A stretch of DNA of 45,555 nt from Oscillospiraceae bacterium. Its GTDB lineage: Bacteria > Bacillota > Clostridia > Oscillospirales > Oscillospiraceae. This document shows, piece by piece, positions 18,050 to 41,468 of this stretch (position 1 is its first letter; each line of letters starts with the position of its first letter). The stretch spans positions 1 to 45,555 of the forward strand of contig JAZPZZ010000209.1 of the NCBI GenBank assembly GCA_045544935.1, written 5' to 3'. Below the pieces are notes generated by a model that saw nothing but the letters and a program-made list of their open reading frames with translations, searched no databases and was not told where the DNA came from. The translations under genes and the position numbers were made by a program.

Positions 18050-21000
18050 TCAGCCGACGGAGAGCAGGGCGGCCTCGGAGATCACCTTGGCGCCGCTGGC
18101 GTCGGTGATGACGCAGCGGTAGCGCTGTCCGTCGCGCTTCGCGGTCGCCTGGATCGTGAGCGTGTCGGTATCTGCGCCGGCGGCGGAGGAATCATACCAC
18201 ATGGTCTTGCCGGGCTGGCAATACTGCCACTGGTAGGTCAGATCGTCGCCGGAGACCTGCACGGTGAAGACGGCGCTCGTCCCGAGCGCGGCGGTCTGAT
18301 CCGCCGGCTGGGAGAGGATTTCCGCCATCGGCTGCGGCGCGCCGACCGTGAGCGCCGCGGCCTCGGAGATCACCCGGTTTCCGGAGACGTCGGTGACGAC
18401 GCAGCGGTAGCGCTGCCCGTCGCGCTTCGCGGTCGCCTGAATCGTGAGCGTGTCCGTGGTTGCGCCGGCGGCGGAGGAATCATACCACATGGTCTTGCCT
18501 GACTGGCAATACTGCCACTGGTAGGTCAGACCCTTTCCGGAGGCCTGCACGGTGAAGACGGCGTCCGCTCCGAGGGCGGCGGTCTGATCCGTCGGCTGGG
18601 AGAGGATCTCCGTTGGCCGGATGCTGCTGTCGATCGTGACCGTCACGGGGTCGGTCGTCACGCTTCTGCCGAGCGCGTCGGAGATGACGCAGCGGTAGGA
18701 CTGGCCGTCGCGCTTCTGGGTGAGGGTGACGCCGATGACCGCGCCGTCCGCGCCGGGCATGCCGGAGTCATACCACGTGGTCTTTCCGGGCTGGCGATAC
18801 TGCCACTGATAGGTCAGCCCCGCGCCCTGCGTGACGACGGAGAGCAGCACCGTCTCGCCTGCGGCGCCGGAGACGTCCTTCGGCTGGGAGACGATCGGGT
18901 CAAACGGCTCGTCGGCGAGGAAGTGGACGGTCGCGTTGTTGAAGCGGTAGGCGCCGGGGATTGCATTCCACTGTTCCTCCGTGCCGACGTAATAGATATC
19001 CTGCAGCGCGTCGCACATGTCGAAGCAGCCGAACATGCTGTTGTCAATCGAGGCAACGCTCGCCGGAATCGTGACGCTCGCGAGATTGCTGCAGGCCATG
19101 CACATTTCCGCGGGAAGCGCTGTGACGCCTTCCGGGATCGTGAGGGAGGTGATGCCGCAGCTGCTGAACGCGGAGAAGCCGATTTCGGCAACACCGGCCG
19201 GAATCGAGATGCGCTTCAGATTTCGGCAGCCGGAGAATGCGTTGGCGCGGATTCGGAGCACCCCGCTCGGAATTTCGTATGCACCGCTCTTTGCAGAGGG
19301 GTACAGGATGAGCTCCGTCATGTCCCTGGTGAAGAGCACGTTATCCACGGACACAAAGCACGCGTTGCCGGGCGCGACGTTGATCGTCGTCAGGCTGCTG
19401 CAGTTTTGGAACGCGCCGTCGCCGATGAAGGTGACCCCTGCCGGGATTGTGACGCGCTCGAGGCCGGAGTGGCCGAGCGCATAGCTGCCGATGTATTCGA
19501 GACTCTCGGGAAGCGCGATGCTCTTCAGCGACCAGCAGGAACTGAACGCGTTGCGGCCGATGGCGATGACGCCCTCCGGGATGGTCACCTGCTCCAGGTT
19601 GTATTGGTTGTAGAAGGCCTCGCCTGCGATCAGCCGCGTGCCGGGGCGGACGTCAAAGCAGACGGAGCCGTTATCGGCCGCACGCATCAGGATGGAGTCA
19701 TAATAGAACGAGTCGTCGATCCAGTTTGCGGTATCGTCATAAATCGGCGTATTGTCGAGCGCGTGGCTTCCGATGTTCCTGACGCTCGACGGAATGTCGA
19801 CCGACGTCAGATTTCCGCACTGATGGAACGCGTAGTCTCCGATCTCCACGACGCCGTCCGGAATCGTGAGGGCGGTCAGGCCGGTGCAGCGCGCGAACGC
19901 GGAATCTCCGATGCGCTCCAGACTCGTCGGGAGCGTCACGCTCGTGAGGTTCGCGCATTCGGAGAACGCGCCGTAGCCGATGCTGCTGACGCCGGGCTGA
20001 AGAACCACGGTCGTCAGATTCGGGCAAAAGGCGAACACGCTGCCGTCCATGGTCTCGACGCTTGCCGGAATGGTGACGCTCGTGAGACCGCTGTAGGCAA
20101 AGGCCATTTCTCCGAGCCGCACAATGTGCTCGGAAAGGTCAATGCGCTTCAGGCTCGTGCATCCGTCGAACGCAAAGTAGCCGATTTCCGTGACGGTATC
20201 CGGGATCGAAACCTGCTCGAGATTCTCGCAGCCGTAGAACGTCGTGCCGCCGATGCGCGTGATGCCGGGCTCAATCACCACGGCGCGGATGCGCGAATCG
20301 AACGACAGCGGGCTTTTATCGTCCGGCGTCTCTCCGTCGGTATAGCGGTCCCAGGTGGCGCCGGTGCCGGTGACGGTGACGACGCCGTTTTCATCCATGG
20401 TCCAATACGCGTTGTCGCCGCACTGGCCGGACGGCAGGACCACGCCGTCCTGACAATGGATGAAGGCGCTCGTGAGCGAGTTGTTGAACTCCGCGATCTC
20501 GACGGCGTTCCACTGCGCCGTCGTGCCGGGGTAATAGACGTCGCCCAGGCCGCGGCAATTCGGGAAGGCGTTATATTCAACGCGCTCGAGGCTTGCGGGC
20601 AGCGTCAGCGCCGTGAGCGCCTCGCAGGAGCGGAACGCGCCGGAGCCGATGCTCGTCACGCCGTCCGGGACGGTGTAAGTCTCGCCCCTGCCGAGCGGAT
20701 ACTGCACCAGCGTGGTGCAGGCCTTGTCAAAGAGCACGCCGTCCACGGCGGCAAAGACTTCGCTGTCGGCCGCGACCTCGAACGACTGCAGGGAGGCGCA
20801 GCCGTAAAACGCGCTGTCTCCGATGCGCTCGAGGCTCGCCGGGATGGAGACGCTCGTCAGATTCCCATCCCAGCAGAACGCCTGGTCCGCAATGCTCGTG
20901 ACGCCCTCGGACAGGACGACCGTTTTCACCCTGTCGGCAAATCGCATCCACGGGTTGGACGTCATCTCACCCGTGCCGGAGATGACGAGGGCGCCGTCCT

Positions 21001-23533
21001 CCAGCAGGGCCCATGTGAGGTGCTCGCCGCAGGCACCGTTGGGATAGTACGTGCCGTCGGCGCACAGAATCTTCGCTCTGTCCAGCGGCTCGTTGCCGAA
21101 CTGGATCTCAACCGCGCTCCACTGCGCGATCGTGCCGGCGAAGGAGACCTCCGCGAGCGCGCCGCAGCCGCTGAACGCGCAGGATTCGATGCGCGCAAGG
21201 CTCGCGGGGAGCTCCACGCGCGTCAGGTTGGGGCAGGAGTTGAACGCGTTGTATACAATGCTCGTGATCCCCTCGGAGATCACGACGCGCTGCACGTCGT
21301 TCTGGTGCTCGTACACCCATGGGGACGAGGTGATCTCACCCGTGCCGGTGATCGTGAGCACGCCGTCGGCCAGCGTCCAGAAGGCATTGCTGCCGCAGGG
21401 CTCCGGCAGCGACGGGTCCGCCGGATCGTCCACGCGGATCGATGCGACGCCGAGGACGTGCCCGTCCGCCGGGTCGGCATAGACCGTGGCGGTGAGCTTG
21501 CGGACGGAATCATACTGGCGGAAATATGCCGGATCGTCGCTCCAGAAGGTCAGCCAATCCTGCGTCGAGCTCCAGAGGACAGGGCGGTAACACCATTCGT
21601 ACTCCGAGAGGTCGAGATAGGGATTGGACAGACCGGAAAGATCGGCGTTTTCGCCGTCTGCAACCCGATAGAAGACCGTTGCAAGCTCCGATCTGTTGAA
21701 CGAAGAGCTCGGCAGAAACTGCGCGGGATCAAAGCCTGTTAAGATATTGCGCCAGTATGTCCAGTGAATCGCGTCGATCTGCCGCTGCGACAATCCCTCG
21801 AGGTCCGTAAACAGCTCCCGATAGCCGGTGATCGAGCCGTTGAAGAGATCATAGAGCATCTCCGCGACGCCGACGCGCGTGCCGTAATAGCTGCGTACCT
21901 GCGTGACGGCGCCCTCCGGCGCCTCGCTGCACAGCACGAGCTCGCCCGTGGCGACGGGAACATTGATATCACCGTCGGAACAGTAGATGCAGGCGGCGGT
22001 CAGCGCGTCGTTTCCGCTGCCGAGCCGCATCGCGTTCCACTGCTCCGTCGTGCCGGAGTAGTTTACATTCTGAATGTTCGGGCAGCCGTCGAACGCGCGC
22101 TCGCCGATCACGGTGACCGTTTCGGGGATCGACACGCTGCGCAGATTCTCATAAAAGCAGAACGCCTCGTCGGCGATGCTCGTGACGCCGTCGCCCACCA
22201 TGATGCAGGTGACGTCCGTATCCATCCAGCCCGGAGAGGAGGTCATCTCGCCCGTGCCGGTGATGCGGAGCGTGCCGTATTCATGCTTGTACCAATAGAC
22301 GTCGTTTCCGCACTGTCCGCTCGCGACGATCGAAGGATCGGACGTCGGCTCGTCGGTCGGGTCTGGCGGCGGAGTCGGCTCGTCGGTCGGCTCGGAGGCG
22401 GGTTCGATCGTGCCGTCCGCGCAGTGGATGGCGGCGTAGTTCAGGCGCTCATTGCCTTCGCTGTCGCCGGTGATCGTGTTCCACTGCTCAATTGTGCCGG
22501 CATAATACACGTCGTGCAGCTTTGTGCAGTTGCGGAAAACCGCATTTCCGAAGCTGGTCACGCTGTCCGGGATCGTGATGGTTGTCAGATTGCTGCAGCC
22601 GCTGAACGCGCCAACTTCTATAGCGGTCACAGAATCCGGAAGCACGATCTCGGAGAGACTGCTGCAATTATCGAATGCAGAGAATCTGATGAGCGTAATG
22701 CCGTCCGGAATCGTAATGCTCGTCAGGCTGCTGCAATCACCGAACGCGTTTTGATCAATGTATATGACAGAAGCCGGGAGATCGATGCTCCGCAGGCTGC
22801 TGCATCGACTAAAAGCGTTTTCGCCGATCTTTTCCACGCCGTAGGGGATCGCCATTTCCACCAGGTTTTCACAATCATAAAACGTGCCGGACCGAATCTC
22901 CGTCAATCCGCTCGGAAGCATGACAGTTTTCAGTTTGCTTTGAGAAAACGCATAGGAATCGATCGCCGTCACGGTTGAAGGAACCGCATACTGCACGTCG
23001 GAACGAGCAGCCGGAAAACGGATCAGCATCTTTTCGTCTTTGCTGAACAAAATGCCATCTACAGCTGCAAAGGCCGGATTGTCCTCTGCAACCTCATACG
23101 CCTCAACGCCTGGAGAATAAGCAAAATTGTGTTCACCGATGCTTGTAAGAGAACTCGGAATGACGATTGTTGGGACATGCAAGTTGCCAAACAGCCCCAT
23201 CGCAATTCCAGTCACGCCCTCTTCAAACACAATCGCTGCTGCGTGTTCAGCGTCGAAATTGATCCAGCTTACTTCGCCTTGGCCGCTGAACGTAAGCACA
23301 TCGTTTTCATCCCGCGACCAAAAGGTGTTCTCGCCGCATTGACCGCTTGTGGGCGATGGCGTCGGTTCTGCGGGCTCTGTCGGATCGGGCGGGATTGGCT
23401 CCTCAGGCGTCTCCGTTGCTGCCGGATCGGTCGGTGCTGCGGGTTCGTCCGGGTCCGCCGCGAGCGCCGCGGAGGGCAGCAGCGACAGCACCAGACAGAA
23501 CACCAGAAGCAAACTGAAAATACGTCGTTTCAT
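18050..23533 (-). CDS. Giant secreted surface protein: several BspA-type leucine-rich-repeat modules + three C-terminal Ig-like domains
   Basis: 1827 aa. Signal peptide. Many F..C..L..I.IP.SV..IG..AF..C units (LRR_5-like). C-terminal YQWQY...W....TL.I....DG..YRCV.TD domains. Confidence 0.9.
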   Translation of the reverse strand: MKRRIFSLLLVFCLVLSLLPSAALAADPDEPAAPTDPAATETPEEPIPPDPTEPAEPTPSPTSGQCGENTFWSRDENDVLTFSGQGEVSWINFDAEHAAAIVFEEGVTGIAMGLFGNLHVPTIVIPSSLTSIGEHNFAYSPGVEAYEVAEDNPAFAAVDGILFSKDEKMLIRFPAARSDVQYAVPSTVTAIDSYAFSQSKLKTVMLPSGLTEIRSGTFYDCENLVEMAIPYGVEKIGENAFSRCSSLRSIDLPASVIYIDQNAFGDCSSLTSITIPDGITLIRFSAFDNCSSLSEIVLPDSVTAIEVGAFSGCSNLTTITIPDSVTSFGNAVFRNCTKLHDVYYAGTIEQWNTITGDSEGNERLNYAAIHCADGTIEPASEPTDEPTPPPDPTDEPTSDPSIVASGQCGNDVYWYKHEYGTLRITGTGEMTSSPGWMDTDVTCIMVGDGVTSIADEAFCFYENLRSVSIPETVTVIGERAFDGCPNIQNVNYSGTTEQWNAMRLGSGNDALTAACIYCSDGDINVPVATGELVLCSEAPEGAVTQVRSYYGTRVGVAEMLYDLFNGSITGYRELFTDLEGLSQRQIDAIHWTYWRNILTGFDPAQFLPSSSFNRSELATVFYRVADGENADLSGLSNPYLDLSEYEWCYRPVLWSSTQDWLTFWSDDPAYFRQYDSVRKLTATVYADPADGHVLGVASIRVDDPADPSLPEPCGSNAFWTLADGVLTITGTGEITSSPWVYEHQNDVQRVVISEGITSIVYNAFNSCPNLTRVELPASLARIESCAFSGCGALAEVSFAGTIAQWSAVEIQFGNEPLDRAKILCADGTYYPNGACGEHLTWALLEDGALVISGTGEMTSNPWMRFADRVKTVVLSEGVTSIADQAFCWDGNLTSVSIPASLERIGDSAFYGCASLQSFEVAADSEVFAAVDGVLFDKACTTLVQYPLGRGETYTVPDGVTSIGSGAFRSCEALTALTLPASLERVEYNAFPNCRGLGDVYYPGTTAQWNAVEIAEFNNSLTSAFIHCQDGVVLPSGQCGDNAYWTMDENGVVTVTGTGATWDRYTDGETPDDKSPLSFDSRIRAVVIEPGITRIGGTTFYGCENLEQVSIPDTVTEIGYFAFDGCTSLKRIDLSEHIVRLGEMAFAYSGLTSVTIPASVETMDGSVFAFCPNLTTVVLQPGVSSIGYGAFSECANLTSVTLPTSLERIGDSAFARCTGLTALTIPDGVVEIGDYAFHQCGNLTSVDIPSSVRNIGSHALDNTPIYDDTANWIDDSFYYDSILMRAADNGSVCFDVRPGTRLIAGEAFYNQYNLEQVTIPEGVIAIGRNAFSSCWSLKSIALPESLEYIGSYALGHSGLERVTIPAGVTFIGDGAFQNCSSLTTINVAPGNACFVSVDNVLFTRDMTELILYPSAKSGAYEIPSGVLRIRANAFSGCRNLKRISIPAGVAEIGFSAFSSCGITSLTIPEGVTALPAEMCMACSNLASVTIPASVASIDNSMFGCFDMCDALQDIYYVGTEEQWNAIPGAYRFNNATVHFLADEPFDPIVSQPKDVSGAAGETVLLSVVTQGAGLTYQWQYRQPGKTTWYDSGMPGADGAVIGVTLTQKRDGQSYRCVISDALGRSVTTDPVTVTIDSSIRPTEILSQPTDQTAALGADAVFTVQASGKGLTYQWQYCQSGKTMWYDSSAAGATTDTLTIQATAKRDGQRYRCVVTDVSGNRVISEAAALTVGAPQPMAEILSQPADQTAALGTSAVFTVQVSGDDLTYQWQYCQPGKTMWYDSSAAGADTDTLTIQATAKRDGQRYRCVITDASGAKVISEAALLSVG
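18053..18910 (-). repeat. Three tandem 288-nt (96-aa) Ig-like domain repeats inside the LRR protein
   Basis: Units start at 18053, 18341 and ~18629. The first two are near-identical at nucleotide level by eye. Confidence 0.75.
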
Positions 23534-25386: not shown

Positions 25387-26604
25387 TTATTTCAAAACGG
25401 CCTTGTGGAAGACCTTCTTGCCCTTGCGGAGCTTCACGCCCGCCTGCAGAGCCTCCTTCGAGACCTTGAAGTCAATGTCCGCGACCTTCTCGCCGTCGGC
25501 CTGCACGCCGCCCTGCTGAATGAGGCGCCGCGCTTCGCCGCGGGAGGCGGCAAGGCCGCAGGCAATCATGAGATCGATGATGCCCATGCCGTCGGCCGGC
25601 ACTTCCGTGAGCTCGGTGGTGGGCATGGTGCTGTCGTCCCCGGAGCCTGCGAAGAGCGCGCGGGCGGCGCTGCGGGCCTTCTCGGCCTCCTCGGCGCCGT
25701 GCACGAGCGTGGTGAGCTCCATGGCGAGGATCTCCTTCTTCTCGTTGATGCGCGCATCGTCCCACTTCTCCATGGCCTCGATCTCCTCGAGCGGGAGGAA
25801 GGTGAGCATGCGGATGCACTTCATGACGTCCGCGTCGTCCACGTTGCGCCAGTACTGATAGAAGTCGAAGGGGCTGGTCTTGTTCGGGTCGAGCCAGACG
25901 GCGTTGCCGGCGGTCTTGCCCATCTTCTTGCCCTGCGAGTCGGTCAGCAGCGTGATCGTCATGGCGTGGGCGTCGCGGCCCAGCTTCTTGCGGATGAGCT
26001 CCGTGCCGCCGAGCATGTTCGACCACTGGTCGTCGCCGCCGAACTGCATGTTGCAGTCGTAGTGCTGGAAGAGGTAGTAGAAGTCGTAGCTCTGCATGAT
26101 CATGTAGTTGAACTCAAAGAAGCTGAGTCCCTTCTCCATGCGCTGCTTGTAGCACTCGGCGCGCAGCATGTTGTTCACCGAGAAGCACGCGCCGACCTCG
26201 CGCAGCACGTCCACGTAGTTGAGATCCAGCAGCCAGTCGGCGTTGTTGACCATGATGGCCTTGCCCTCGCCGAACTCGATGAACTTCTCCATCTGGCGCT
26301 TGAAGCACTCGGCGTTGTGGTTGATGTCCTCGCGCGTGAGCATCTTGCGCATGTCGGTGCGGCCGGAGGGGTCGCCGATCATGGTCGTGCCGGCGCCGAT
26401 GAGGGGGAGGGGCTGGGTGCCCGCCTCCTGCAGGCGCTTCATGAGCGTGAGCGCCATGAAGTGACCGGCGGTCAGGCTGTCGGCCGTGCAGTCAAAGCCG
26501 ATGTAGAAGCGGGCCTTGCCGGTGTTGACCATCTCGCGGATCTCTTCCTCGTTCGTGACCTGCGCGATCAGACCGCGGGCCTGCAGCTCTTCATAGATTC
26601 CCAT
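25387..26604 (-). CDS. tyrS: Tyrosine--tRNA ligase
   Basis: ATG 26604 behind GGAGGAC. GFDCTADSLTAGH (HIGH-like), KMGKT (KMSKS-like), C-terminal S4-like domain. Preceded by a Tyr T-box. Confidence 0.92.
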   Translation of the reverse strand: MGIYEELQARGLIAQVTNEEEIREMVNTGKARFYIGFDCTADSLTAGHFMALTLMKRLQEAGTQPLPLIGAGTTMIGDPSGRTDMRKMLTREDINHNAECFKRQMEKFIEFGEGKAIMVNNADWLLDLNYVDVLREVGACFSVNNMLRAECYKQRMEKGLSFFEFNYMIMQSYDFYYLFQHYDCNMQFGGDDQWSNMLGGTELIRKKLGRDAHAMTITLLTDSQGKKMGKTAGNAVWLDPNKTSPFDFYQYWRNVDDADVMKCIRMLTFLPLEEIEAMEKWDDARINEKKEILAMELTTLVHGAEEAEKARSAARALFAGSGDDSTMPTTELTEVPADGMGIIDLMIACGLAASRGEARRLIQQGGVQADGEKVADIDFKVSKEALQAGVKLRKGKKVFHKAVLK

Positions 26605-26640
26605 TTTTGTATGTCCTCCAATAAAATGAATTGTCAAAAT

Positions 26641-26905
26641 AAAACGCCCTCTGTCCTTTCCGGGACAGAGGGCGATTGTTCGCGGTACCACCTCTGGTTT
26701 CCGCACCTCTCACGAAGTGCGGCTCACGATGTGCATGACACATCCGCGCGATAACGGGCGCACCCGACTGGCCCTACTGGCAAACGCGTTCAGGCAGCGG
26801 CTCCGGAGGGTACTTCAAAGCAGAGGCCGCGCGCCCTCGCACCAACCGGGCGCTCTCTGAAGCGGGAATAAGCTGCTTTTACTCAAACTCCATCACAGCC
26901 GTGAC
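26641..26905 (-). promoter_or_regulatory. T-box leader (tRNA-Tyr sensing riboswitch) of tyrS
   Basis: Minus strand: AGAGAG stem-I start. GAAGUACC with UAC (Tyr) at 26810-26812. T-box AAACCAGAGGTGGTACCGCG (26681-26700). Terminator cgccctctgtcc/ggacagagggcg + TTTT (26641-26674). Confidence 0.85.
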
Positions 26906-26915
26906 GTATGGGGGG

Positions 26916-26944
26916 ATTATAACATTGCAATACAAAAAATGCAA
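26916..26944 (-). promoter_or_regulatory. Promoter of the tyrS T-box leader
   Basis: Minus strand: TTGCAT (26939-26944), 17 nt spacer, TATAAT (26916-26921). Confidence 0.65.
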
Positions 26945-27037
26945 GAGTGGAACGTTGAGAGTGGAGAGTGGAGATGACAAGACAGCTTCTGCGCAGAAAC
27001 CATGCGGCAACTCCACTCTCAACTCTCCACTCTCCAC
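26945..27037. repeat. Inverted repeat built from tandem heptamers (GAGTGGA units / CTCCACT units)
   Basis: gagtgga-acgttga-gagtgga-gagtgga-g versus ctccact-ctcaact-ctccact-ctccac. About 20/22 complementary, ~44-nt loop, several pairing registers possible. Sits directly after the stop of the 27044 gene. Confidence 0.7.
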
Positions 27038-27043
27038 GCTCAT

Positions 27044-27985
27044 TTATTGGTCGTACACGCCCGTGCCCATGATGAGGCTCGCGTTGGCCTCGAAGTGCGA
27101 CGGGGCGATCGTGACGCTGCCGCCGGCGGGGACATCCTTGGCCGAGGCGGTGTAGGTGATGCCGCCGACGAAGGTGTTCTCGTCCGGGTAGAAGTACTTA
27201 TAGAACACGCGCACGACCGGCAGGGGCTCCTGCGTGGTGTTCATGAGGGTGATGGTGTTGTCGTCGTTGATGACGGGGATTACCTTGTCCGAGCCCGGGA
27301 GCATGTCCACCGGCGCGACGACGCGGCTGATCAGCTCGAGCACTTCCTTTGTGTCGCGCTGATGGCGGGATGCCTCGAGCACCACGCAGGACTGACCCGC
27401 GGGCAGATCGGAGACCTTGAAGGAGATCGGCTTGCCGTTTACGTCGAAGGCGTATTCGGCGTACTGAATGTCCTTGTCGCTCGTGTTGACAAACTGCAGC
27501 GCGAGCACGTTTTTGACCTGCTCGTCCGTGCCGTCCTCGAGGAAGGCGCCGTCGTAGCCCGCGGCGAGCGTGCGGATCTCGATGCCGTAGTCGTCGTCCT
27601 TTAGGTTGGTCCACGGCTGCTTTACGGTCTCCTCGCCGGTGCCGGCGGTGCCGCTGCCGGTGTCGGTCTTGACGCCGGAGAGGTTGCTGTTGCCGGTCTG
27701 GCGGATGGTGTCGATCGGGTTTTCATCGAGCACCTCGAGCTCGTTGCCCTCGTCGTCCACGAGGACCTTCTGGCCGTCGTCGTTGATGATGACCGTGCCC
27801 TCCGTGGAGCCCGAGCCCTCGGGCTGCTTGGGGGCGCTGCTCTTCGAGGCGAAGAAGATGCCGAGCGCGATCGCGAGCACGACCAGCACCGCCACGCCCG
27901 TCCAGACGATGGTCATCTTCCGGTTGACCTTGTTGAAGCGGTCAGCCGGGTTTTTGGTTTCTTTCTTTTCGGGTTCCTGACTCAT
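27044..27985 (-). CDS. Single-pass membrane protein, function unknown (Lys-rich cytoplasmic N-tail, TM helix, ~260-aa external domain)
   Basis: ATG 27985 overlaps the rSAM stop (ATGA). TM IVWTGVAVLVVLAIALGIFFA. Third gene of the rSAM operon. Confidence 0.7.
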   Translation of the reverse strand: MSQEPEKKETKNPADRFNKVNRKMTIVWTGVAVLVVLAIALGIFFASKSSAPKQPEGSGSTEGTVIINDDGQKVLVDDEGNELEVLDENPIDTIRQTGNSNLSGVKTDTGSGTAGTGEETVKQPWTNLKDDDYGIEIRTLAAGYDGAFLEDGTDEQVKNVLALQFVNTSDKDIQYAEYAFDVNGKPISFKVSDLPAGQSCVVLEASRHQRDTKEVLELISRVVAPVDMLPGSDKVIPVINDDNTITLMNTTQEPLPVVRVFYKYFYPDENTFVGGITYTASAKDVPAGGSVTIAPSHFEANASLIMGTGVYDQ

Positions 27986-29106
27986 TTTGCGTCCTCCTTC
28001 AGCAGCGCGCGGCAGGCGGGGCCCGTGGCGCGCATCAGATCGCAGCGATACTGCGGTTTCTTGTCGTAGCAGCCGGTTTCGGTATAGATCATGGCGGCGC
28101 AGGAGCGGCAGACGTCCTTCGAGTCGCACGCGGCGCACTCCGCCGGCAGGCGGATGGCCTGCGTCCGAGCGCGCAGCGCCTCCCACGCAGCGGGAAAGCC
28201 CGTTTCGAAGACATTGTAGCTCGGGTCGTCCATCATGGCGCACAGCAGCAGCCGTCCGTCCCACGTGATCCAGAACGAGCTCTTGCCCGCGCGGCAGCGC
28301 ACGCCGTCGCCCTCGCAGTCGAACATGGCGTCCTCCTCGAGCACGCAGTGCGATTCCACGCTCTCGCAGTACTTGAGCAGGTCCTCGCGGCCGCGCTGCA
28401 GCAGACGGATGCGCGCCTCCACGGCGGCGCATTCCTCCGGCGTAAAGCGCTCGTTGCGCCCGATGCTGGTCTCGTCGCGCCGCAGGGGCGGGAACATGTA
28501 GCTCGTGGCCTGCAGGACGAGCTTGCGCTCATCGCTGTAGGCGATGATCTTCTCCAGATCGCAGACGTTGTCCGGCGTGACGCTGCAGTTGAGCTTCACG
28601 GGGATGTTCGCCTCCTGCAGCATCTCGATCGCGCGGGTCACGACGGTGTAGCCCGTGGCGTGATTGCACAATCGGAGATACGTCTCGTCCGACGCGCCGT
28701 AGAGCGTGATGTTGATGCGCTGCGGCGGGTCCTCGGCAAACCATCTGACGGTCTCCTCGTCGATGAGCGTGGCGTTGGAGTTGATGGATATGACGAAGCC
28801 CATTTTCCGAAGTTCCCGATAGAGCTCCCGGAAGCCGGGGTAGGTCAGCGGCTCGCCGCCGGTGAGCAGGAGCAGGAGCGTGCCCTGTTCCTTGAGCACC
28901 TTTGCCAGAGAGAGCCATTCGTCCACGGTGCGCAGCCGCTTGCCGGAGTCTTTCACCTCCTCGGCCGTCATGCGCACATAGCACATTTTGCAGCTCATGG
29001 AGCACATCGGCGTGAGCTCGAACGTGCCCGAGAGCGGGATGCCGCGCACGTCCGCGCGGCGGTGCAGATGCTCCACCAGAGCGCTGGAGCCTCGTTCAGC
29101 AATCAT
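27982..29106 (-). CDS. Radical SAM enzyme with C-terminal SPASM-type Cys-rich domain
   Basis: CSMSCKMC (CxxxCxxC, nt 28981-29004). C-terminal CRAGKSSFWITWDGRLLLC ... CAACDSKDVCRSC ... GCYDKKPQYRC. Confidence 0.9.
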   Translation of the reverse strand: MIAERGSSALVEHLHRRADVRGIPLSGTFELTPMCSMSCKMCYVRMTAEEVKDSGKRLRTVDEWLSLAKVLKEQGTLLLLLTGGEPLTYPGFRELYRELRKMGFVISINSNATLIDEETVRWFAEDPPQRINITLYGASDETYLRLCNHATGYTVVTRAIEMLQEANIPVKLNCSVTPDNVCDLEKIIAYSDERKLVLQATSYMFPPLRRDETSIGRNERFTPEECAAVEARIRLLQRGREDLLKYCESVESHCVLEEDAMFDCEGDGVRCRAGKSSFWITWDGRLLLCAMMDDPSYNVFETGFPAAWEALRARTQAIRLPAECAACDSKDVCRSCAAMIYTETGCYDKKPQYRCDLMRATGPACRALLKEDAK

Positions 29107-29969
29107 TTCGGTTCTCCTTCCAGGGTGTTTCGCAGCAGCGTCACGGGCCGCTCGTCCGGCGTGCAGGCGAGCAGATAGACCGGCACCTCGCTCACGATCT
29201 CCGTCACGAGGCGGATGACGCGCTGGTGCGCATCATGGTGCCAGCGGGGCAGCACCGATTCGGAATAGATCGCGCGGAACGCCTCCGCGAGCGAGAGGCG
29301 GCGGATCGTGTTCTCCGGCGCCTGCCGCAGCACGACGAGCGCGCGGACCGGCGCGTGTTCGTTGCGGTAAATGCCGCTCGTGCCGGCGAAGGGCGAGCCG
29401 AAGGCGGTCCAGACGCCGTCGACGCGGCGGAGCATGCTCCGGTCGCCGTTGAGCGTGTCGGCCCCGGCAAACTGCTCCCAGAGCCCGGCCTGCGTGCTCT
29501 TGCCGGTGCCGGAGGGGGCGGTGAACAAGATCGCGTCGCCCTCGGGTCTGCGCACGAGCGAGGAGTGCAGGCTGAAGGTCTCCAGCCGCGACAGCAGCAG
29601 CTCAAGCTCGGAGGCGTCGAGCAGGTTGTCCAGCGAGCGGACGTAATTGAGCCGGTCGGGATAGACGCAGCCGGTCACGCGCATCGGGTCCTCCTCGCGC
29701 ATCCAGACGCAGGCGCAGGCCTTCAGCGCCGCGGCGGGCAGGCGCTCAATGCGAAGCACGCCGTCTTCCTCCTGCCAGACGCGGGGCGCGCGCTCCTGGA
29801 TGAGCGTGCCGCGCTCCGGCGGCTGCTCCAGACGAAAGCGGAGCGAAACGTCCGCGCCGGGCTTTTCGGTGAGGAAGGGGGCGCAGTTGTCGTGCGTCTC
29901 CAGCTCGATCGGGGAGACGACCTCCCAAAGAAAGCCCGCAATATCCAGTTTGTAGGTAAATTCGGACAT
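29103..29969 (-). CDS. HPr-kinase-C-terminal-like P-loop protein (ScmC/HprK-related kinase-like)
   Basis: ATG 29969 behind GGAG. LHSSLVRRPEGDAILFTAPSGTGKST (P-loop nt 29492-29518) resembles the HprK/PEPCK-type P-loop. Stop overlaps the rSAM start (ATGA). Confidence 0.65.
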   Translation of the reverse strand: MSEFTYKLDIAGFLWEVVSPIELETHDNCAPFLTEKPGADVSLRFRLEQPPERGTLIQERAPRVWQEEDGVLRIERLPAAALKACACVWMREEDPMRVTGCVYPDRLNYVRSLDNLLDASELELLLSRLETFSLHSSLVRRPEGDAILFTAPSGTGKSTQAGLWEQFAGADTLNGDRSMLRRVDGVWTAFGSPFAGTSGIYRNEHAPVRALVVLRQAPENTIRRLSLAEAFRAIYSESVLPRWHHDAHQRVIRLVTEIVSEVPVYLLACTPDERPVTLLRNTLEGEPK

Positions 29970-30004
29970 AAATACTCCAGATTTTGATAATCGTTCAAAA
30001 TAGT

Positions 30005-30033
30005 ATTCTATTACAACGCATTCAAAGATGCAA
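30005..30033 (-). promoter_or_regulatory. Promoter of the HprK-like/rSAM/membrane protein operon
   Basis: Minus strand: TTGCAT (30028-30033), 17 nt spacer, TAGAAT (30005-30010). Confidence 0.6.
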
Positions 30034-30036: not shown

Positions 30037-30064
30037 AAAACCCGCTGAATTTCAGCGGGTTTTT
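30037..30064 (-). terminator. Terminator of the DUF4430/SLH gene
   Basis: aaaacccgctg-aaatt-cagcgggtttt, palindromic with A/T runs on both sides. Confidence 0.8.
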
Positions 30065-30070: not shown

Positions 30071-32293
30071 TTATCGAACAATATATACCATCACGCCGAG
30101 GTCGGTGCACTGCTCGGCGATCAGCGCGCGCAGCGCGCTCTCGGCTTCAAAGCCGCCGTCGTCCCTGCGGAAGGTGAGCAAACGGGAAGCGAGCGTGCTG
30201 ACCTGGTCGCCGTCCAGCTTCACGAAGAAGCTCGGCGCGATTCTGGCCGTGGTCGGGTTTGCCGCCTGCGTCGAGAGCATCTGGCTCGCTAGCATCGCCT
30301 GCGCCGTCGTGTCCGGATCGCCGGAGGAGAAGCCGCCGTTCGGCTGCTGCTGATCGGAGAGCCAGAGCAGCGCGTTGTTCACGGCGTAGAGCACGTCCTC
30401 GTCGGCGAGATACGGCGCGAGCGCCTGCAGCGCCATGGCGGTGCGATTGGCGTCGCCGAAGCTGCCGTCGGCGTTCTGCGCGGCGAGAATCGCCTGCACG
30501 TAGTCGGCGCGGCAGTAGGAGACGTAGCTGCCGGAATCGAGCGCCAGCAGCGCCCAGATCTGCCCCTCCAGGCCGGAGGCATTCACAAACTTCCGGTCGT
30601 TTAAGCGCGCGGTGAGGTCCTGGCCGCCGAGATTCGCGGCGCTGCGGCCCAGCGCCGTCACGGCGAGGACGGTGCCGGCGAGGGTCTTCGCGTCGGGCGC
30701 GTCGAGCCGGCCGTTCGTGGCCTTGGCCTTCGCCTCCACGTCGTAAATGTAGAAATAATAAGCCTCGGGCAGCGCGCGCCCGGTCGCGGCGGCGTTGCGC
30801 GCCGCGTCAAAGACGGTGAGATCGTCCCGGCCGCACTGCGGCGCGGCGACGGCCTCCATCCGGCGCGCGAGCGCGGTGTCCAGCGGGGCGTCCGCCGCGA
30901 GCGTGAGCGCCTTCTCGCCGCCGGTCAGATCGCGCCAGAGGAAGGTGACGATCTGCGCACGGGTGCAGTTGTTGTCGGGGGCGAATTTGCCGCCGCCCAT
31001 GCCGTTCGTGATGCCCTGCTCCACGGCCCAGTCCACGGCCGCGGCGTAGTATTCCCGGGAGGGCACGTCCGAAAAGCCGCCCGCGGTCTTCGCCTTCGGC
31101 TGGCCCTCCATGCGCCAGAGGAACGTGACGGTCTGTCCGCGCGTCACGGTGCTGTCCGGGCCGAAGTGGGTCGCATCAATGCCGGTGGTGATGCCGTTTT
31201 CCAGCGCCCAGAGCACGGGCTTATAGTAATATTCGCCCGCGGCCACGTCCGTGAAGGGGCTCGCCGTGCGCTTCGGCTCGGGCGAGCCCTTCGCGCGCCA
31301 GAGGAAGGTCACCATCTGGCCGCGGGTGCAGCTGCTGTTCGGGCCGAAGTGCGTCTTGTCCACGCCGGTGGTCACGCCGCTGGTCACGGCCCAGTCCGTC
31401 GCCTGGTGATACCACTCCGCGCGGTCCACGTCGACAAACACGCGCGACGGGCAGCCTGCGCCGCCGTCACAGCGCTTTTGCGCGGGCGTTGGGGTCGGAG
31501 TGGGCGCAGGGGTCGGAGTGGGCGCAGGGGTCGGCGTCGGAGTGGGAGTCGGCGTCGGCGTCGGCTCCGCGACGGGCACGAGCTTGATGGTGTAGGCCTT
31601 GCCGCCGTCCACCTTCACGGTGGCGGCGCCGCAGTCGGTTTTCACGGTCCGCGCGCCCCAGCGCGAGGCGTCCTCATTGCCCGCGGTGACAAACACCTTG
31701 TTTCGCCGGTTCGCGGCGGTCGGCTCGATCGTCACACTGCCGATCGGGGCGGGGAGATAGAGCGTGTAGTCCGTCACGTCCGGACGGAAGGAGGGATAGA
31801 GCGCGCCGGCGTCGAAGGTCAGCGCGGCGAGGCGTTTGTCGATGCTCGCGGGGTCCGCGCCCACGTCCCTGCCGCGGTTCGTGGTGTACTGAATTCTGAC
31901 CGTGTCGCCCGCCTGCACGGGCTCGGAGAGCGCCGCGATCCAGCCGTTCACGGACGCGAGCCAGCTGCCGGTGCCATACTCCTTCAGATTGCCGATGCCG
32001 GTCAGCGCGCCGTCCTCATACTGCAGCAGGTTGGACGCGCCGCCGTTTTGATCGCAGGCGGCGGTGAGCGCTTTTTCGACCGTCCATCCGGATTTGTAAT
32101 CCACGGCCGCGTCAAACAGCTGGTCATACCAGATTTGCACGGAATTTCCGCTGACGGTGATGAAATCCTTCCGCACGGCGGTGTTCTCCACGATCACGCG
32201 CACCTTGCCCGCATCGGCGGCATGGGCCGCGCCGGGCAGCAGGGAGATCAGCAGCAGAACCGCAAGCAGCAGACTCGTGGTCCGGTGTTTCAT
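30071..32293 (-). CDS. SLH-anchored surface protein: DUF4430-like domain + cadherin-like beta-sandwich + PT linker + 3 SLH + prenyltransferase/terpene-cyclase-like alpha/alpha toroid
   Basis: ATG 32293 behind GGGAGGG. YGTGSWLASVNGWIAALSEPVQAGDTVRIQY (DUF4430-like). LAALTFDAGALYPSFRPDVTDYTLYLP. Three F.DV....WY....W SLH repeats. Repeated Q..DG.F motifs at the C-terminus. Confidence 0.8.
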   Translation of the reverse strand: MKHRTTSLLLAVLLLISLLPGAAHAADAGKVRVIVENTAVRKDFITVSGNSVQIWYDQLFDAAVDYKSGWTVEKALTAACDQNGGASNLLQYEDGALTGIGNLKEYGTGSWLASVNGWIAALSEPVQAGDTVRIQYTTNRGRDVGADPASIDKRLAALTFDAGALYPSFRPDVTDYTLYLPAPIGSVTIEPTAANRRNKVFVTAGNEDASRWGARTVKTDCGAATVKVDGGKAYTIKLVPVAEPTPTPTPTPTPTPAPTPTPAPTPTPTPAQKRCDGGAGCPSRVFVDVDRAEWYHQATDWAVTSGVTTGVDKTHFGPNSSCTRGQMVTFLWRAKGSPEPKRTASPFTDVAAGEYYYKPVLWALENGITTGIDATHFGPDSTVTRGQTVTFLWRMEGQPKAKTAGGFSDVPSREYYAAAVDWAVEQGITNGMGGGKFAPDNNCTRAQIVTFLWRDLTGGEKALTLAADAPLDTALARRMEAVAAPQCGRDDLTVFDAARNAAATGRALPEAYYFYIYDVEAKAKATNGRLDAPDAKTLAGTVLAVTALGRSAANLGGQDLTARLNDRKFVNASGLEGQIWALLALDSGSYVSYCRADYVQAILAAQNADGSFGDANRTAMALQALAPYLADEDVLYAVNNALLWLSDQQQPNGGFSSGDPDTTAQAMLASQMLSTQAANPTTARIAPSFFVKLDGDQVSTLASRLLTFRRDDGGFEAESALRALIAEQCTDLGVMVYIVR
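31484..31566 (-). repeat. Pro-Thr linker-encoding low-complexity tandem repeat
   Basis: ggggtcggagtgggcgca duplicated, followed by (ggcgtc/ggagtc)n. Encodes PTPTPTPTPTPTPAPTPTPAPTPTPTP. Confidence 0.6.
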
Positions 32294-32422
32294 AACAATC
32301 CCTCCCAATCGAAATTGTTCAGTAAGTCATACTATAGCATAGAGAATTCGGAATCGCAAGGAATTCGTGACAGGCGGAAAGAGGCGCCGCAGGGGGGGGG
32401 GCAAGCCCCTCCCCTGCATGAA

Positions 32423-34926: not shown

Positions 34927-35139
34927 TGTAGGTCAGATTCCTCCATTCTCGTCTGTTCTCTTTTAGATTCGGAAAGACGGGGAAAGCCCCGTCGGGTAAG
35001 TGTCAAATATTTCAAACGAAGTCTCCACACTCCGCATAAAATATCACCATATTATTCTAGCGGCCTTTCAACATTATGTCAAGTATGTCGGGGCGATTTT
35101 TCCGCTGAAGTTTTCTGAAAAAACACGCCCTCCGGAGGT

Positions 35140-35168
35140 TTGACAGCGCAGGTTGCGCACTTTATAAT
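35140..35168 (+). promoter_or_regulatory. Consensus sigma-70 promoter of the TIR gene
   Basis: TTGACA (35140-35145), 17 nt spacer, TATAAT (35163-35168). Confidence 0.7.
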
Positions 35169-35223
35169 ATATGTAAAAAAACGGCGGCGAGGGCCGTCGC
35201 TGCAGTGTTTGGGAGGGAGCCGG

Positions 35224-38200
35224 ATGCAAAAACAGAAGCAAAATTCGCCGCAGGACGACCAATACGACATTTTCCTCTCCTACAGCCACCGCGATCACGC
35301 GGTGGTGCGTCGCGCGCAGCGCATAATGGAGCGCTGGATCCCCGTGGAGGAGGACGGAGAGAAGCGAAAGCTCCGCGTTTTCCGCGATGAATCGCATCTC
35401 ACGGCGGGCGATCTGTCCGAACGCATCCGCGAAGCGCTCGGCCGCAGCGAATATCTGATGGTGTTCTGCTCGCAGAGCGCGCTGGAGTCGGACTATGTGC
35501 ATCAGGAGCTGGCCGCCTTTCTCGACCTCTTTTCGCTCGACACGCCCGCGCAGCAAAGGACGGCCCTGGAGCACGTGTTCTTCGGCGTCTTTGAAAAGGA
35601 GCCGGACCGCAGCAAGGATCTCATACGCCGCCTGATCGCGAAGGCCATGCGCTCGAAGCTCTCCATGGAGCAGCTGGTCTCGCTGCAGAAGATCGCGAGC
35701 GAGAACGTCTTTGCCGATTACGGCAAGAGCGGCCGCTCCCGCGCGATGGAGCGAAAGGAGACCTACAAGGTCGTGGCCGCGATGCTGGACCGCGACCTCG
35801 ACGCGCTGCTGCGCCGCGGCGAGCACCGCCGCCGCCGGCTCGTCGCGAGCGCGGTCGGCGCGGGCGTGCTCATCGGTGTGCTGATGCCGGCGTTTATCCT
35901 CAGCTATACCGCCATGCGCGACCGGGACGCGAGGCAGCTCTCCCTCGTGGCCGAGGCGCAGATGCGCTCCGGCGACCGGCTCACGGCGGCAAGACTCGCC
36001 CTCGCGAGCATGGAGTCGAAGCTTTTCTACCGCACCACGGCGCCGGAGGCCGTCTCCGTGCTGGCAGACACGTCGCTGGCCTACACCCTGCCCTCCGAGA
36101 CGCACATCGAGACCTCGGAGCAGTTTTCCATCCGCTATGACAAGAGCCTCAGCGCGGACGTCTCGCCCTCGGGGCGGTATCTCGCCGCGGTCAACGAAAA
36201 GCTGGACGTCGTCGTCTGGGACGTGCAGACCGGGCAGGAAAAGTGGTCGATCAGATTCGTTCTGGACCCGCTCTGCAATCCGGTGCTGCGCTTCATCGGG
36301 GACGACATGCTCCTCGTGAGCGATTTCTTCAGCGCCCGCTGCATTGATATGGACACGGAAGAGGAGCTCTGGGCGCAGGAATATGAAAAGCCGGAATCGG
36401 TCTTTCGGATCACCTATGCCGCGGGCGGCAATTCGAGCATGCTGTACAACGAGGAGTTCGACGGCGCGGCGAACTTCGCCGCCGGAAAGCCCGACGAGGT
36501 GCTCTTTGTCGAGCGAAAGGGCGGTCTGGTGCTGCGCAACGTGCGCTCCGGCGAGGAGCTCGCGCGGCTGGAGGCGGACAAGATCGCGCCGCTGCTGCCG
36601 GAGGGCGTGCAGTATTATGAGCAGAATGCGATCTACGTCCTGTCGATGCTCGCCCAGTCGCAGTCGCCGGATGAAATTTACTATGACGCGTCGTCCGATC
36701 AGTTTTATGTGCCCTGCAGTGCCAAGCGAAACGTCACGTCGCGGGGCGACTCTTTCAGCATTGATGAGGTCTGCCCCGGCGTTCTGGTCTGGAGCCCGTC
36801 GACGGGTGCTGCGAAGTATGTGCCGCTCGACAACGCGGTCTATGACGAGGACTGGGCCGAGGGCGGCATGGAGGCGATCGCCTATCCCGGCGGGGAGCTG
36901 ATTCTCAAGCGCCTGAGCGGGCGCGAGGGAGACCGCATCTGCGCCTTCGACTGTGAGACCGGCTCTGTTCTCTGGAAGGCGGAGCTCAACGCCGTGGACG
37001 ACTATATCCCCTTTGAACACACCGTCTGCGGCACCGAGCAGGGCATCGCCGTGCTGCAGAAGGACAGCCTGCTGTTTCTCGATGCGAAGGACGGCAGCGT
37101 GAAAAAGACCGTGAAGCCGGAGCTGGATTACAATGAAGAACTGCTCGTCCTGCTGCTGGAGGGGCAGAGCGCGGCGCGCGGCACATCTGTTGAGAGCAAT
37201 TCGCTGCTGCTGCTCACCTCCAGGGGCCGCATCTGCGCCCTCGGCGCCGACGGCGTCACTGTGGGCGCGGCCGGACAGGCCGTGAGTACCGACAAGCTGC
37301 GCTATCCGCTCTATGTCTCCGGCGCGCACGCCTTCGACGGCCGGACCTACGTCTACAGCCAGACGGACAACGCCGTGCAGCAGTATCTCATCGGCGTGGA
37401 GAACGAGGGCTGGCGCGATCTGACGCAGATGCTGCAGGAGACCGCGCGCAGCCGGCATCTGCTCTCCGGCGAGCGGCTGCTGGTGAAGAACACGTCCGAC
37501 GCGTGGACGCTCTATGACGTTTCGTCGGCGGCAAAGAAGCTCTGGACCGTTACGCCCGAGGACATGGAGCGCGAGCGCGCGAAACGCTATGAGGGCGACT
37601 CCCTGCTCGAGCGCTTCCAGGACCTTGAGTTCGTGGGCGAGGACGCGTCCGAGGGCGTCATCGTGCTCTCAACCGAGGAGCTCTACGGTTTCGTTCTGCT
37701 CGATACCGAAACCGGCGGGATCGAGCTGCGGGAGGTCCCCTTCGGCGAGCCGGGGAGCGAATCGGCCCACAGCGCGGACAAAACGCGGCTCTGGAGCCCC
37801 GTGCTGACGGAGGACGGCTTGTTCTACGTCACCTGTGTCCAGCGCGGGGAGAAGATGGAATACGGCTGGATCCAGTATCAGCTCTCCGACACCGGTTATT
37901 TCTATCATCCGGTCGGCACCGCCGAGGGCGCGAGCTCCATGACCGAGCTGGGCCTTGTCGTTTCGCCCACCGGAAAGTTTGTCGTGGTGGTCGGGTTCTA
38001 TGAGGGACCGGTGCTCTACTCCACGGCGGAGACGTACGGCAAGCCGGTGAATTTCGATCTCCCCATCGAGGACGGCGACTATGAATATGGCTCCATGCTG
38101 ACCAACCTGTTCTTCCAGAAGGGCGAAAACGCCGCCGTTTGTGCCTTTTCGGCCGACGGCCGGCGCTTTGCCGTGAACTTCGCCTCCATGGGGCAGGTCC

Positions 38201-38658: not shown

Positions 38659-38674
38659 GATTTTGCGCGGACGG

Positions 38675-38703
38675 TAGACAAGACGCGGCAGATTGTATAT
38701 AAT
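38675..38703 (+). promoter_or_regulatory. Promoter of the GT39 gene
   Basis: TAGACA (38675-38680), 17 nt spacer, TATAAT (38698-38703). Confidence 0.5.
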
Positions 38704-38749
38704 AATCTGTTGTATTCTGACCACTGCGCAAAGAAAGGGAAGCGGTTCC

Positions 38750-40582: not shown

Positions 40583-40605
40583 TTTCGCAGAAAAGCCGCG
40601 AGCGG

Positions 40606-40770
40606 CTTTCCCGCGAGGGGGCTGCGCTGCGAAAGAAATTTTTGGTCGCAAGTGCGACTTGCGAAAAGAAAAATTCCTTTCTCCGCGAGCAGTATTTTTC
40701 AGCCCGAAACAAGTTCCGGGCGAAAAATGATTTGAATGATTCGCGCTTGCGAGCGCGAACTCTGCCGAGA
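40606..40770 (+). repeat. Copy 1 of a ~165-nt structured direct repeat (downstream of GT39, upstream of rpiB)
   Basis: 40617-40733 is nearly identical to 41277-41393 (offset exactly 660 nt). Internal long hairpin gaaagaaattttt...aaaaattcctttc. Confidence 0.85.
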
Positions 40771-41256: not shown

Positions 41257-41262
41257 CGCTGG

Positions 41263-41430
41263 GCTTCCCGGCGAGGGGGGGCTGCGCTGCGAAAGAAATT
41301 TTTGGTCGCAAGTGCGACTTGCGAAACGAAAAATTTCTTTCTCCGCGAGCAGTATTTTTCAGCCCGAAACAAGTTCCGGGCGAAAAATGATTTCATTCTT
41401 TTCGCCTCTGCGGAGGCGAACTCTGGCGAG
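41263..41430 (+). repeat. Copy 2 of the ~165-nt structured direct repeat (downstream of rpiB)
   Basis: See copy 1. The terminal hairpin differs by paired substitutions (ttcgcctc/gaggcgaa versus ttcgcgc/gcgcgaa). Confidence 0.85.
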
Positions 41431-41468
41431 GCCGACTCATAACTATTCCTGATTTGAGGTAAATCTCT

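Follow-up and report, generated by a model that had tools for sequence, protein, structure and literature searches.

An HprK-like, radical SAM/SPASM and membrane protein operon from an Oscillospiraceae bacterium as a putative maturase set for a peptide encoded in trans

Contig JAZPZZ010000209.1 of an Oscillospiraceae bacterium (assembly GCA_045544935.1) was analyzed over its positions 1 to 45,555, and this entire 45.5-kb stretch is referred to throughout as the window. Its minus strand carries an operon of three genes encoding an HprK-like P-loop protein (P1), a radical S-adenosylmethionine (rSAM) enzyme with a SPASM-type C-terminus (P2), and a single-pass membrane protein (P3). On balance, we lean toward the view that this trio is a maturase set similar to those of peptides that are made on the ribosome and modified after translation (RiPPs) and that it acts in trans upon a precursor of a type referred to here as s90, which would be encoded elsewhere in the genome. 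A previous reading made from the sequence alone (the sequence-only reading) had left two alternatives standing, namely a RiPP-like pathway with an unrecognized or distant precursor and a module that modifies its own co-translated membrane protein. Comparative genomics favors a RiPP-like pathway with its precursor elsewhere, since orthologous loci contain both s90 and a PqqD-family protein and since s90 also occurs in orphan gene pairs with no maturase genes nearby.

With each GTDB species represented by one genome, a scan detected a P1 relative in at least 589 species genomes, with hosts that include Oscillospiraceae, Lachnospiraceae, Peptostreptococcaceae, Erysipelotrichaceae, Christensenellaceae, and an Olsenella. 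Most of the hosts are gut- and rumen-associated Clostridia. Gene order was compared among 84 fetched loci, a subset of 53 of which have full flanks. P2 is present in 76 of the 84 loci, in most of them directly adjoining P1 and elsewhere with nothing but P3 or PqqD between the two. The P3 domain was found in 49 of the loci and is missing from the other 35. Where present, the P3 gene lies either between those of P1 and P2 or outside this pair, downstream of P2 or upstream of P1, and the existence of these three alternative orders indicates that the linkage survives gene shuffling. The sequence-only reading had named a lack of synteny in other genomes as grounds for abandoning its proposal; synteny instead held across the 84 loci, and the three-gene unit is conserved as a block. 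Clustering of all the open reading frames (ORFs) surrounding the loci then identified same-strand partners: s90 in 60 loci (and in more with a hidden Markov model, HMM), a large protein with a VWA domain in 48, and a PqqD-family protein (PF05402, E = 7e-15) in 47. A subset of the loci adds two genes that are strongly associated with one another (Fisher p = 5e-6), one for an NTP_transf_5 nucleotidyltransferase and the other for an ABC exporter. Among the 53 full-flank loci, s90 is present in 47 and PqqD in 30. The order VWA-s90-P1-P2-P3, with or without PqqD, accounts for 21 of these loci, s90-P1-P2-PqqD-nucleotidyltransferase-ABC exporter for five, VWA-s90-P1 without an rSAM gene for another five, and P1-P2-P3 alone, as in the window, for four. 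P3 tends to accompany the VWA protein (25/32 versus 8/21 loci; Fisher p = 0.0045, a value not corrected for phylogeny), and this co-occurrence suggests that P3 may work together with the VWA surface protein.

The s90 peptide is typically 80-100 aa in length. Its gene lies downstream of the VWA gene, and in the arrangement seen most often P1 follows it directly. It begins with a conserved leader of ~22 aa (MKKxYxKPxhxxExFxLxxxIA), continues with a variable core, and ends in a conserved CY(N/H)xP......F-x-S motif. Exactly four Cys are found in 44 of the 61 aligned copies, whereas a terminal Ser is present in all 61. Highly divergent versions of 100-200 aa also exist, and all but one of these keep the terminal Ser, while the leader remains recognizable. 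This combination of a leader, a variable core, and conserved Cys is the anatomy of an rSAM substrate, and s90 is thus the candidate precursor of the system. No NCBIfam model matches s90, neither s90 nor P3 belongs to a Pfam or NCBIfam family, and the database names are 'hypothetical protein' throughout. The VWA partner is a secreted protein of 1000-1900 aa that carries a signal peptide in addition to its VWA domain. One metagenome contig (L135), which ends 1.2 kb farther downstream, has four s90-like ORFs in tandem at 9980-11994, and this tandem array suggests that the precursor has multiplied in some lineages. In the five VWA-s90-P1 loci mentioned above (L025, L037, L038, L040, and L050), no rSAM gene lies within 6 kb. 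At L037 (130-6867), VWA-s90-P1 is followed by genes for a sortase, an LCP-family protein, and polysaccharide synthesis. The rSAM-free loci suggest that P1 can act upon s90 independently of an rSAM enzyme, and L037 hints at a cell-wall context.

The operon of the window belongs to a lineage in which these partners are not found in cis. The sequence-only reading had noted no PqqD or other RiPP recognition element (RRE) protein, no exporter, and no convincing precursor ORF nearby, and our searches bear this out across all 45.5 kb. In tblastn comparisons of s90, PqqD, ABC exporter, NTP_transf_5, and VWA sequences against the window, the only matches were to SLH domains and came from one large protein. 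Likewise, all six-frame ORFs of ≥20 aa in the window were screened with two HMMs, one of the complete s90 and one of its leader, as well as with a regular expression for the leader, and no s90-like sequence was identified. A 54-aa ORF that begins immediately after the P3 stop codon (26879-27043) was considered as a precursor and rejected, as both the terminator hairpin and the tyrS promoter lie within its span and its sequence is not conserved in the related locus L085. In a neighbor-joining tree of P2, the window groups with the three-gene loci L005, L006, L004, and L009 in a single clade, and its sister group consists of VWA-s90-P1-P2-P3 loci (L001, L002, L003, L007, and L008) that already lack PqqD. 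Both groups are nested within fuller clusters, which indicates that the precursor-less state is derived. The operon of the window is a trimmed form of a fuller cluster. Two additional loci, L027 and L029, were examined as further precursor-less examples and are not counted here, because their contigs are truncated and PqqD lies at the contig edge.

Despite this trimming, the three genes show the signature of purifying selection rather than of decay, with dN/dS values against the close relative L085 of 0.31 for P1, 0.14 for P2, and 0.33 for P3. Their ORFs are full length and their motifs are intact across the clade, within which P1 and P3 have diverged to ~50% identity. P2 is 66-76% identical both to orthologues encoded beside s90 and to the members of its own clade, with the s90-adjacent orthologues at 66%. 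The genes flanking the trio differ between clade members, with an SLH gene and tyrS in the window and L085, and a flavodoxin-like gene and addBA in L004 and L088. The L004/L088-type trio has its own promoter and terminators. From these differences in flanking genes, we conclude that the trio is autonomous.

Genes for s90 that lack neighboring maturase genes do exist. A search with the s90 sequences of the sister clade identified VWA-s90 pairs in three independent contexts (L093/L094, L153, and L154/L155) that have no P1, P2, or P3 in the sequenced flank, which extends ~4.5-8.5 kb downstream of s90. L093/L094 derives from an Oscillospiraceae metagenome-assembled genome. The large proteins of the orphan pairs are full-length homologues of the sister-clade proteins (28-31% identity over ~950 aa), and the orphan s90 leaders hardly differ from the sister-clade leaders (MKKTY[SV]KP..YAESFEL.EH[IV]A); for both, the sister clade provides the closest relatives. 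The orphan VWA-s90 pairs are the natural complement of the precursor-less maturase operons. At L154 (2703-9802), the orphan pair is situated beside a defense island that contains Thoeris ThsB-TIR and ThsA-Macro genes as well as an HxsD-linked rSAM gene pair. This is the only hint of a defense neighborhood for the family, and it is probably coincidental.

P2 matches the radical SAM family PF04055 at 89.1 bits (cut-off 29.5), and its CxxxCxxC motif (C35-x3-C39-x2-C42) is invariant among its relatives. The sequence-only reading had recognized this motif together with a Cys-rich C-terminus of SPASM type, and both proved correct, as the full seven-Cys pattern of the SPASM subgroup (PF13186/TIGR04085), which is CX9-15GX4C ... 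CX2CX5CX3C ... C and serves two auxiliary clusters, is present as C271-x12-G284-x4-C289 ... C324-x2-C327-x5-C333-x2-C336 ... C355, with a third spacing of x2 rather than x3. All of these Cys are likewise invariant among relatives. The Pfam SPASM model (PF13186) scores 20.6 bits, just under its cut-off of 21.5. Among solved structures, the thioether synthase SkfB is nearest in sequence (E = 2.7e-11), while the anaerobic sulfatase-maturating enzyme (anSME) structure 4k37 aligns over the core only (E = 3.6e-4). Among the best 25 of the 61 NCBIfam models matched by P2, which include AhbD, ScmE, MoaA, NirJ, MftC, PqqE, SkfB, and viperin, P2 falls below every cut-off, and most of the alignments cover the rSAM core only. 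The top match is the heme b synthase AhbD (80 versus a cut-off of 500), followed by ScmE; MoaA scores 61 versus 284 and viperin (NF038283) 53.6 versus 180. P2 thus does not fall cleanly into a housekeeping rSAM family, in agreement with the sequence-only reading, at least within these best 25 of 61 matches. It also has no N-terminal RRE, because the CxxxCxxC motif begins at residue 35 and leaves no room for one. P2 is closest to peptide maturases and is predicted, by analogy with these, to be a peptide cross-linking maturase with three Fe-S clusters.

The SLHSSLV and FTAPSGTGKST motifs of P1 are invariant or nearly so among relatives; the invariant residues are H135, S136, the Walker A segment A151-PSGTGKST-159, G175, and R177, and D176 is nearly invariant. 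An AlphaFold2 (AF2) model built on 44 sequences reached a predicted local distance difference test score (pLDDT) of 93.2, and Foldseek matched this model to ATP-dependent phosphoenolpyruvate carboxykinase (PEPCK; E = 1e-7, probability 1.0) as well as to the HprK/P structures 3tqf, 1jb1, 2qmh, and 1kkl (E = 6e-6 to 1e-5, probability 1.0, TM ~0.5 on the target). The P-loop fold of P1 is therefore PEPCK-like and includes the Walker A, His, and Asp motifs, and the HPr-kinase-like block proposed from the sequence is borne out at the level of the fold and its conserved motifs. A match to the Hpr_kinase_C profile (PF07475), on the other hand, was not obtained at E ≤ 1. A Pfam copy lacking the PF27840 model gave no match to P1, and a profile search of PDB sequences returned no HprK and nothing else meaningful. 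The protein database lists a precomputed PF27840 'ScmC' assignment for the P1 of the window and for all 120 relatives listed; the closest relatives have it flagged as 'weak', and L001 and L004 have it without a flag. The sole NCBIfam matches below E = 0.01 are to ScmC (17.1 bits, E = 0.0027, cut-off 125). Judging from the model, P1 is HprK-like in its fold and motifs rather than as a member of Hpr_kinase_C, and it is predicted to be an ATP-dependent peptide kinase or modifier.

P3 consists of a basic cytoplasmic tail, a transmembrane (TM) helix at residues ~25-46, a variable linker, and a conserved ectodomain at residues 125-313, which AF2 models as a tandem beta-sandwich with a pLDDT above 90. 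It is probably a type II (N-in) membrane protein with an extracytoplasmic ectodomain. In some relatives, among them P0232, the P3 domain follows a zinc-ribbon, a TM segment, and a Big_2 domain, and this order, together with the basic N-terminal tail and TM helix of P3, argues that the conserved domain lies outside the cell. Searches of Pfam and NCBIfam with P3 returned nothing significant (best match DUF5979, E = 0.015, 16 versus 25 bits; NCBIfam E ≥ 0.04), while Foldseek found generic FN3/Ig tandems only (IL-17RA, factor XIII barrels, and RbmA). The family nevertheless comprises 1557 clusters at 50% identity, nearly all of ~270-350 aa. The sole Cys of P3 is not conserved, nor is its cytoplasmic tail, and its last residue is not Ser.

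Taken together, these features allow a mechanism to be proposed. In the complete system of other Clostridia, s90 would be the substrate of the P1-P2 enzyme core. P2 would install radical-mediated cross-links at the Cys residues of s90, on the model of the thioether-forming enzymes SkfB, AlbA, and QhpD, while P1 would transfer phosphate from ATP to the invariant C-terminal Ser, in analogy with PadeK and PsmK. P3 would work outside the membrane, probably as a tethered binding partner of the product and/or the VWA protein. In the lineage of the window, neither the VWA-s90 pair nor PqqD is found in cis, and the enzymes would act in trans. The analysis establishes the gene structure, the folds, the synteny, the derived state, and the purifying selection; the identity of the substrate, both chemical steps, the action in trans, and the role of P3 are inferred, the chemistry from analogy with characterized enzymes and the role of P3 from co-occurrence. 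More tentatively, and with doubts outweighing our confidence, the system can be imagined as a 'surface-complex RiPP', in which maturation in trans would yield a core of ~60-180 residues with Cys cross-links and a phospho-Ser that serves outside the cell as a subunit or ligand of giant VWA adhesin-like proteins, with P3 as its membrane-tethered receptor or assembly factor.

Several observations weigh against the proposal that the trio matures an s90-type precursor in trans. No precursor was found in the 45.5 kb of the window, nor in the ~90 kb of flanks of seven other three-gene loci. An orphan pair and a three-gene operon could not be placed in one genome, as the cluster members have no usable locus tags, the window's own protein is not among the records, and the source of P0063 and P0065 is a bulk metagenome assembly, and tetranucleotide similarity offers only a weak hint, with L153 being closest to L004 (0.91) and L088 (0.90). 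The orphan pairs are also rare: in a scan of metagenomes, s90 was followed by P3, P1, or P2 wherever the downstream DNA sufficed. The exception, L120, is uninformative, as it has only ~240 nt downstream of s90. Both the three-gene clade and its sister lack PqqD as a means of leader recognition, and some s90 architectures have no exporter through which s90 could leave the cell. The five VWA-s90-P1 loci without an rSAM gene indicate that cross-linking by P2 is not obligatory for every s90, and the four Cys could simply form disulfides. Lastly, the cross-linking and kinase chemistry is ascribed to this family by analogy only.

Four other explanations were weighed. The trio of this clade might be precursor-independent, either because it has been retargeted to another peptide, a small molecule, or a protein, or because it is a slowly decaying remnant. 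We consider this improbable, though not negligible: across the three-gene clade there is no precursor, PqqD, or exporter in cis, the P2 tree documents gene loss from an ancestral cluster, and P1 and P3 evolve faster than P2. Either version, however, is difficult to reconcile with the intactness of every catalytic motif, from the three Cys clusters to Walker A and the motifs around His and Asp, with ORFs that remain full length at a clade depth of 50% identity for P1 and P3, and with dN/dS values of 0.14-0.33 at short distance, while the 66% identity of P2 to its s90-adjacent orthologues argues for the same type of substrate.

Somewhat less probable again is the idea that s90 is not the substrate and that the VWA protein or another envelope protein is matured instead, with s90 as a small accessory or structural subunit. 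The s90 gene does always lie downstream of the VWA gene where both occur and is probably co-translated with it, P3 co-occurs with the VWA protein, the commonest architecture has no exporter, and a length of 80-200 aa is long for a RiPP precursor. Nevertheless, s90 is found without the VWA protein in 15 of 47 full-flank loci, whereas the reverse was never observed, and the VWA proteins carry signal peptides. Moreover, the s90 layout is of the rSAM-substrate type and co-occurs with PqqD, a leader-binding chaperone.

The second alternative of the sequence-only reading, in which P3 would itself be the substrate of P1 and P2 and the module would modify its own third product, now seems quite unlikely. 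In its favor, translation of P3 is coupled to that of P2, no other partner has been retained in the trimmed clade, and P3 never occurs without P2 in full-flank loci (33/33); furthermore, the HXS system demonstrates maturation of an envelope protein by rSAM enzymes (PMC13128918). The conserved domain of P3 appears to be extracytoplasmic, however, as judged from its basic N-terminal tail, its TM helix, and the domain order of P0232, and the protein offers neither a conserved Cys nor a terminal Ser nor a conserved cytoplasmic tail to be modified. In addition, P1 and P2 occur without P3 in 35 of the 84 loci, including 14 of 47 with full flanks. Finally, a housekeeping or defense rSAM module with an unlinked non-peptide substrate (of the AhbD, NirJ, or MoaA type, or a viperin and kinase antiviral pair) is already effectively refuted: AhbD is the top NCBIfam match of P2, PADLOC pVip models reach 59 bits on its rSAM core, and there are pVips with an associated kinase, but the scores are far below the cut-offs (AhbD 80 versus 500, MoaA 61 versus 284, viperin 54 versus 180) and are confined to core residues ~29-200, viperins lack the SPASM domain that is present in P2, P1 and P3 have no PADLOC match, and the family context is that of PqqD and a Cys-containing peptide.

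The signals surrounding the trio are those of a single P1-P2-P3 transcription unit, and the layout given by the sequence-only reading held up in each of its elements (Table 1). The genes are joined by ATGA start/stop overlaps at 29106-29103 (P1/P2) and 27985-27982 (P2/P3), and each of the three starts is served by a GGAG-type ribosome-binding site. Longer mechanical ORFs for P1 (335 aa) and P3 (462 aa) were rejected, as the homologues give them no support and begin at MSEFTYKL (P1) and MSQEPEKK (P3). The hairpin and T-run that terminate the upstream SLH-protein gene would shield the operon from upstream transcription, and the TTGCAT-17-TAGAAT promoter is situated directly 3' of this terminator. 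The promoter was missed by a simple consensus scan, as its -35 element matches TTGACA at 3/6 positions only; at the same upstream position, L004 has TTGCAT-17-TACAAT before its homologous operon. The heptamer inverted repeat that closes the unit is a genuine hairpin, with arms at 26944-26976 and 27008-27040, a folding energy of -54.1 kcal/mol (z = -5.97), and a following T-run. Its heptamer motif (GAGAGTG/GAGTGGA) is unique to this position within the window. At the equivalent position in L085 (10940-11020), there is also a hairpin with tandem heptamers, but of unrelated sequence (GAGGAAT/ATTCCTA). The heptamer-repeat architecture has been retained, with its sequence replaced.

Table 1. Positions of the operon, its transcription signals, and the large surface-protein genes in the window
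Feature	Position	Strand	Description
P1 gene	29969..29103	minus	288 aa, ATG start, GGAG 8 nt upstream
P2 gene	29106..27982	minus	374 aa
P3 gene	27985..27044	minus	313 aa
Operon promoter	30005..30033	minus	TTGCAT 30033-30028, 17-nt spacer, TAGAAT 30010-30005
Terminator of upstream SLH-protein gene	30037..30059	minus	CCCGCTGAA/TTCAGCGGG hairpin and T-run, read from sequence
Operon terminator	26934..27040	minus	33-nt-arm hairpin, tandem heptamers, then T-run
SLH/cadherin-like surface protein	30071-32308	minus	745 aa, Pro-Thr linker, weak alpha-macroglobulin TED-like C-terminus
BspA-type LRR protein with Ig domains	18050-23533	minus	1827 aa
SLH protein	43676-44872	minus	398 aa

Downstream of the operon, the T-run of its terminator overlaps the -35 element of the tyrS promoter (TTGCAT-17-TATAAT, 26944-26916), which has the same unusual -35 sequence as the promoter of the trio. 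Ahead of the tyrS gene itself (25387-26706, minus), a T-box leader (RF00230, 116 bits) lies at 26665-26905. The contig is rich in large surface proteins, and the three in Table 1 contain no VWA domain and show no likeness to the VWA partner beyond their SLH repeats. For three long mechanical ORFs on the minus strand at 35074-37458, 38585-40651, and 41037-42647 (794, 688, and 536 aa), Pfam gave no match at E ≤ 1e-4; they overlap long opposite-strand ORFs in GC-rich sequence.

The window has thus led to a testable family of substrates, defined by a leader, four Cys, and an invariant terminal Ser, in which, to judge from the accessory genes, cross-links and phosphorylation of the C-terminal Ser would be the expected modifications. 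The tie to very large VWA surface proteins may bear upon adhesion and cell-surface biology in the microbiome, and if the 'surface-complex RiPP' idea is true, such a system spans hundreds of gut Clostridia species while being absent from Pfam, NCBIfam, and the literature searched. The trimmed form in the window also shows that maturases can persist for long evolutionary periods without a precursor in cis, and genome-mining tools that require a neighboring precursor would miss such operons.

Several known systems provide points of comparison. In the HXS antiphage system (HxsA-D), a recent precedent for envelope proteins matured in this way, rSAM enzymes mature an envelope-acting protein effector (PMC13128918). 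HXS differs in having two rSAM enzymes, HxsD, and an effector with HxS repeats, and no homology was detected to P1 or P3. The window itself gave no evidence of a defense-island context, the pVip match to the rSAM core being the only PADLOC result. Another parallel is offered by the thioether maturases and their kin (SkfB, AlbA, ranthipeptide/SCIFF enzymes, and QhpD), which share the CxxxCxxC motif and the 7-Cys SPASM domain with P2 and act upon Cys-containing precursors with leaders, as are found in the relatives of the window operon. P2 differs from these enzymes in having no RRE, in scoring below the family cut-offs, and in its P-loop and membrane beta-sandwich partners, and its operon has no precursor in cis. 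A RRE-dependent RiPP maturase of the sactipeptide/ranthipeptide type is recognized by a PqqD-like RRE and a leader precursor in its cluster, and the window contains neither. QhpC offers a precedent of similar size, as this small protein of ~80-100 aa receives its cross-links before joining large extracytoplasmic partners.

For P1, the nearest functional precedents are the HprK-family kinases PadeK and PsmK, which phosphorylate the C-terminal Ser of lasso peptides, after which the nucleotidyltransferase PsmN decorates the phosphate (PMC6993621). The paeninodin and pseudomycoidin clusters share with our family the kinase fold and a Ser-ended precursor, as well as, in a subset of loci, NTP_transf_5, PqqD, and an ABC exporter. 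Where those clusters have a lasso cyclase and B-protease, however, ours have a rSAM/SPASM enzyme, and neither a lasso cyclase nor a B protein was found in the window or in related loci. Furthermore, our precursor is larger (80-200 aa, with four Cys), the Ser-ended peptide occurs only in relatives of the window operon, and P1, which has no significant match to Hpr_kinase_C, shows similarity at the level of the fold only.

The SynChlorMet cassette (ScmC, ScmD, which is a PqqD protein, and ScmE/ScmF; TIGR04248-04251) likewise combines an HprK-like P-loop protein with rSAM/SPASM enzymes, and its PqqD has a counterpart in relatives of the window operon. It has two rSAM enzymes rather than one, there is no PqqD in the window, the hosts of our family are gut Clostridia, and P3, the VWA protein, and s90 are new partners. 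Strict membership in SynChlorMet, which the sequence-only reading had raised as a precedent, fails, as the equivalog thresholds are not reached (ScmC 17.1 versus 125, ScmE 65.4 versus 400, and ScmF 41.9 versus 400). To our knowledge, the SynChlorMet cassette has no known product. Pairs of rSAM/SPASM and HprK-like proteins have been cataloged bioinformatically (as SCM, and as ScmC in Pfam), with no product or substrate found in the literature, and our literature search identified no paper on the present family, nor any relevant one on SynChlorMet or ScmC or linking HprK with rSAM, PqqD, SPASM, or RiPP biology. The family, though itself uncharacterized, is related in kind to cassettes that pair a rSAM/SPASM enzyme with an HprK-like protein, and among these it is closest to SynChlorMet.

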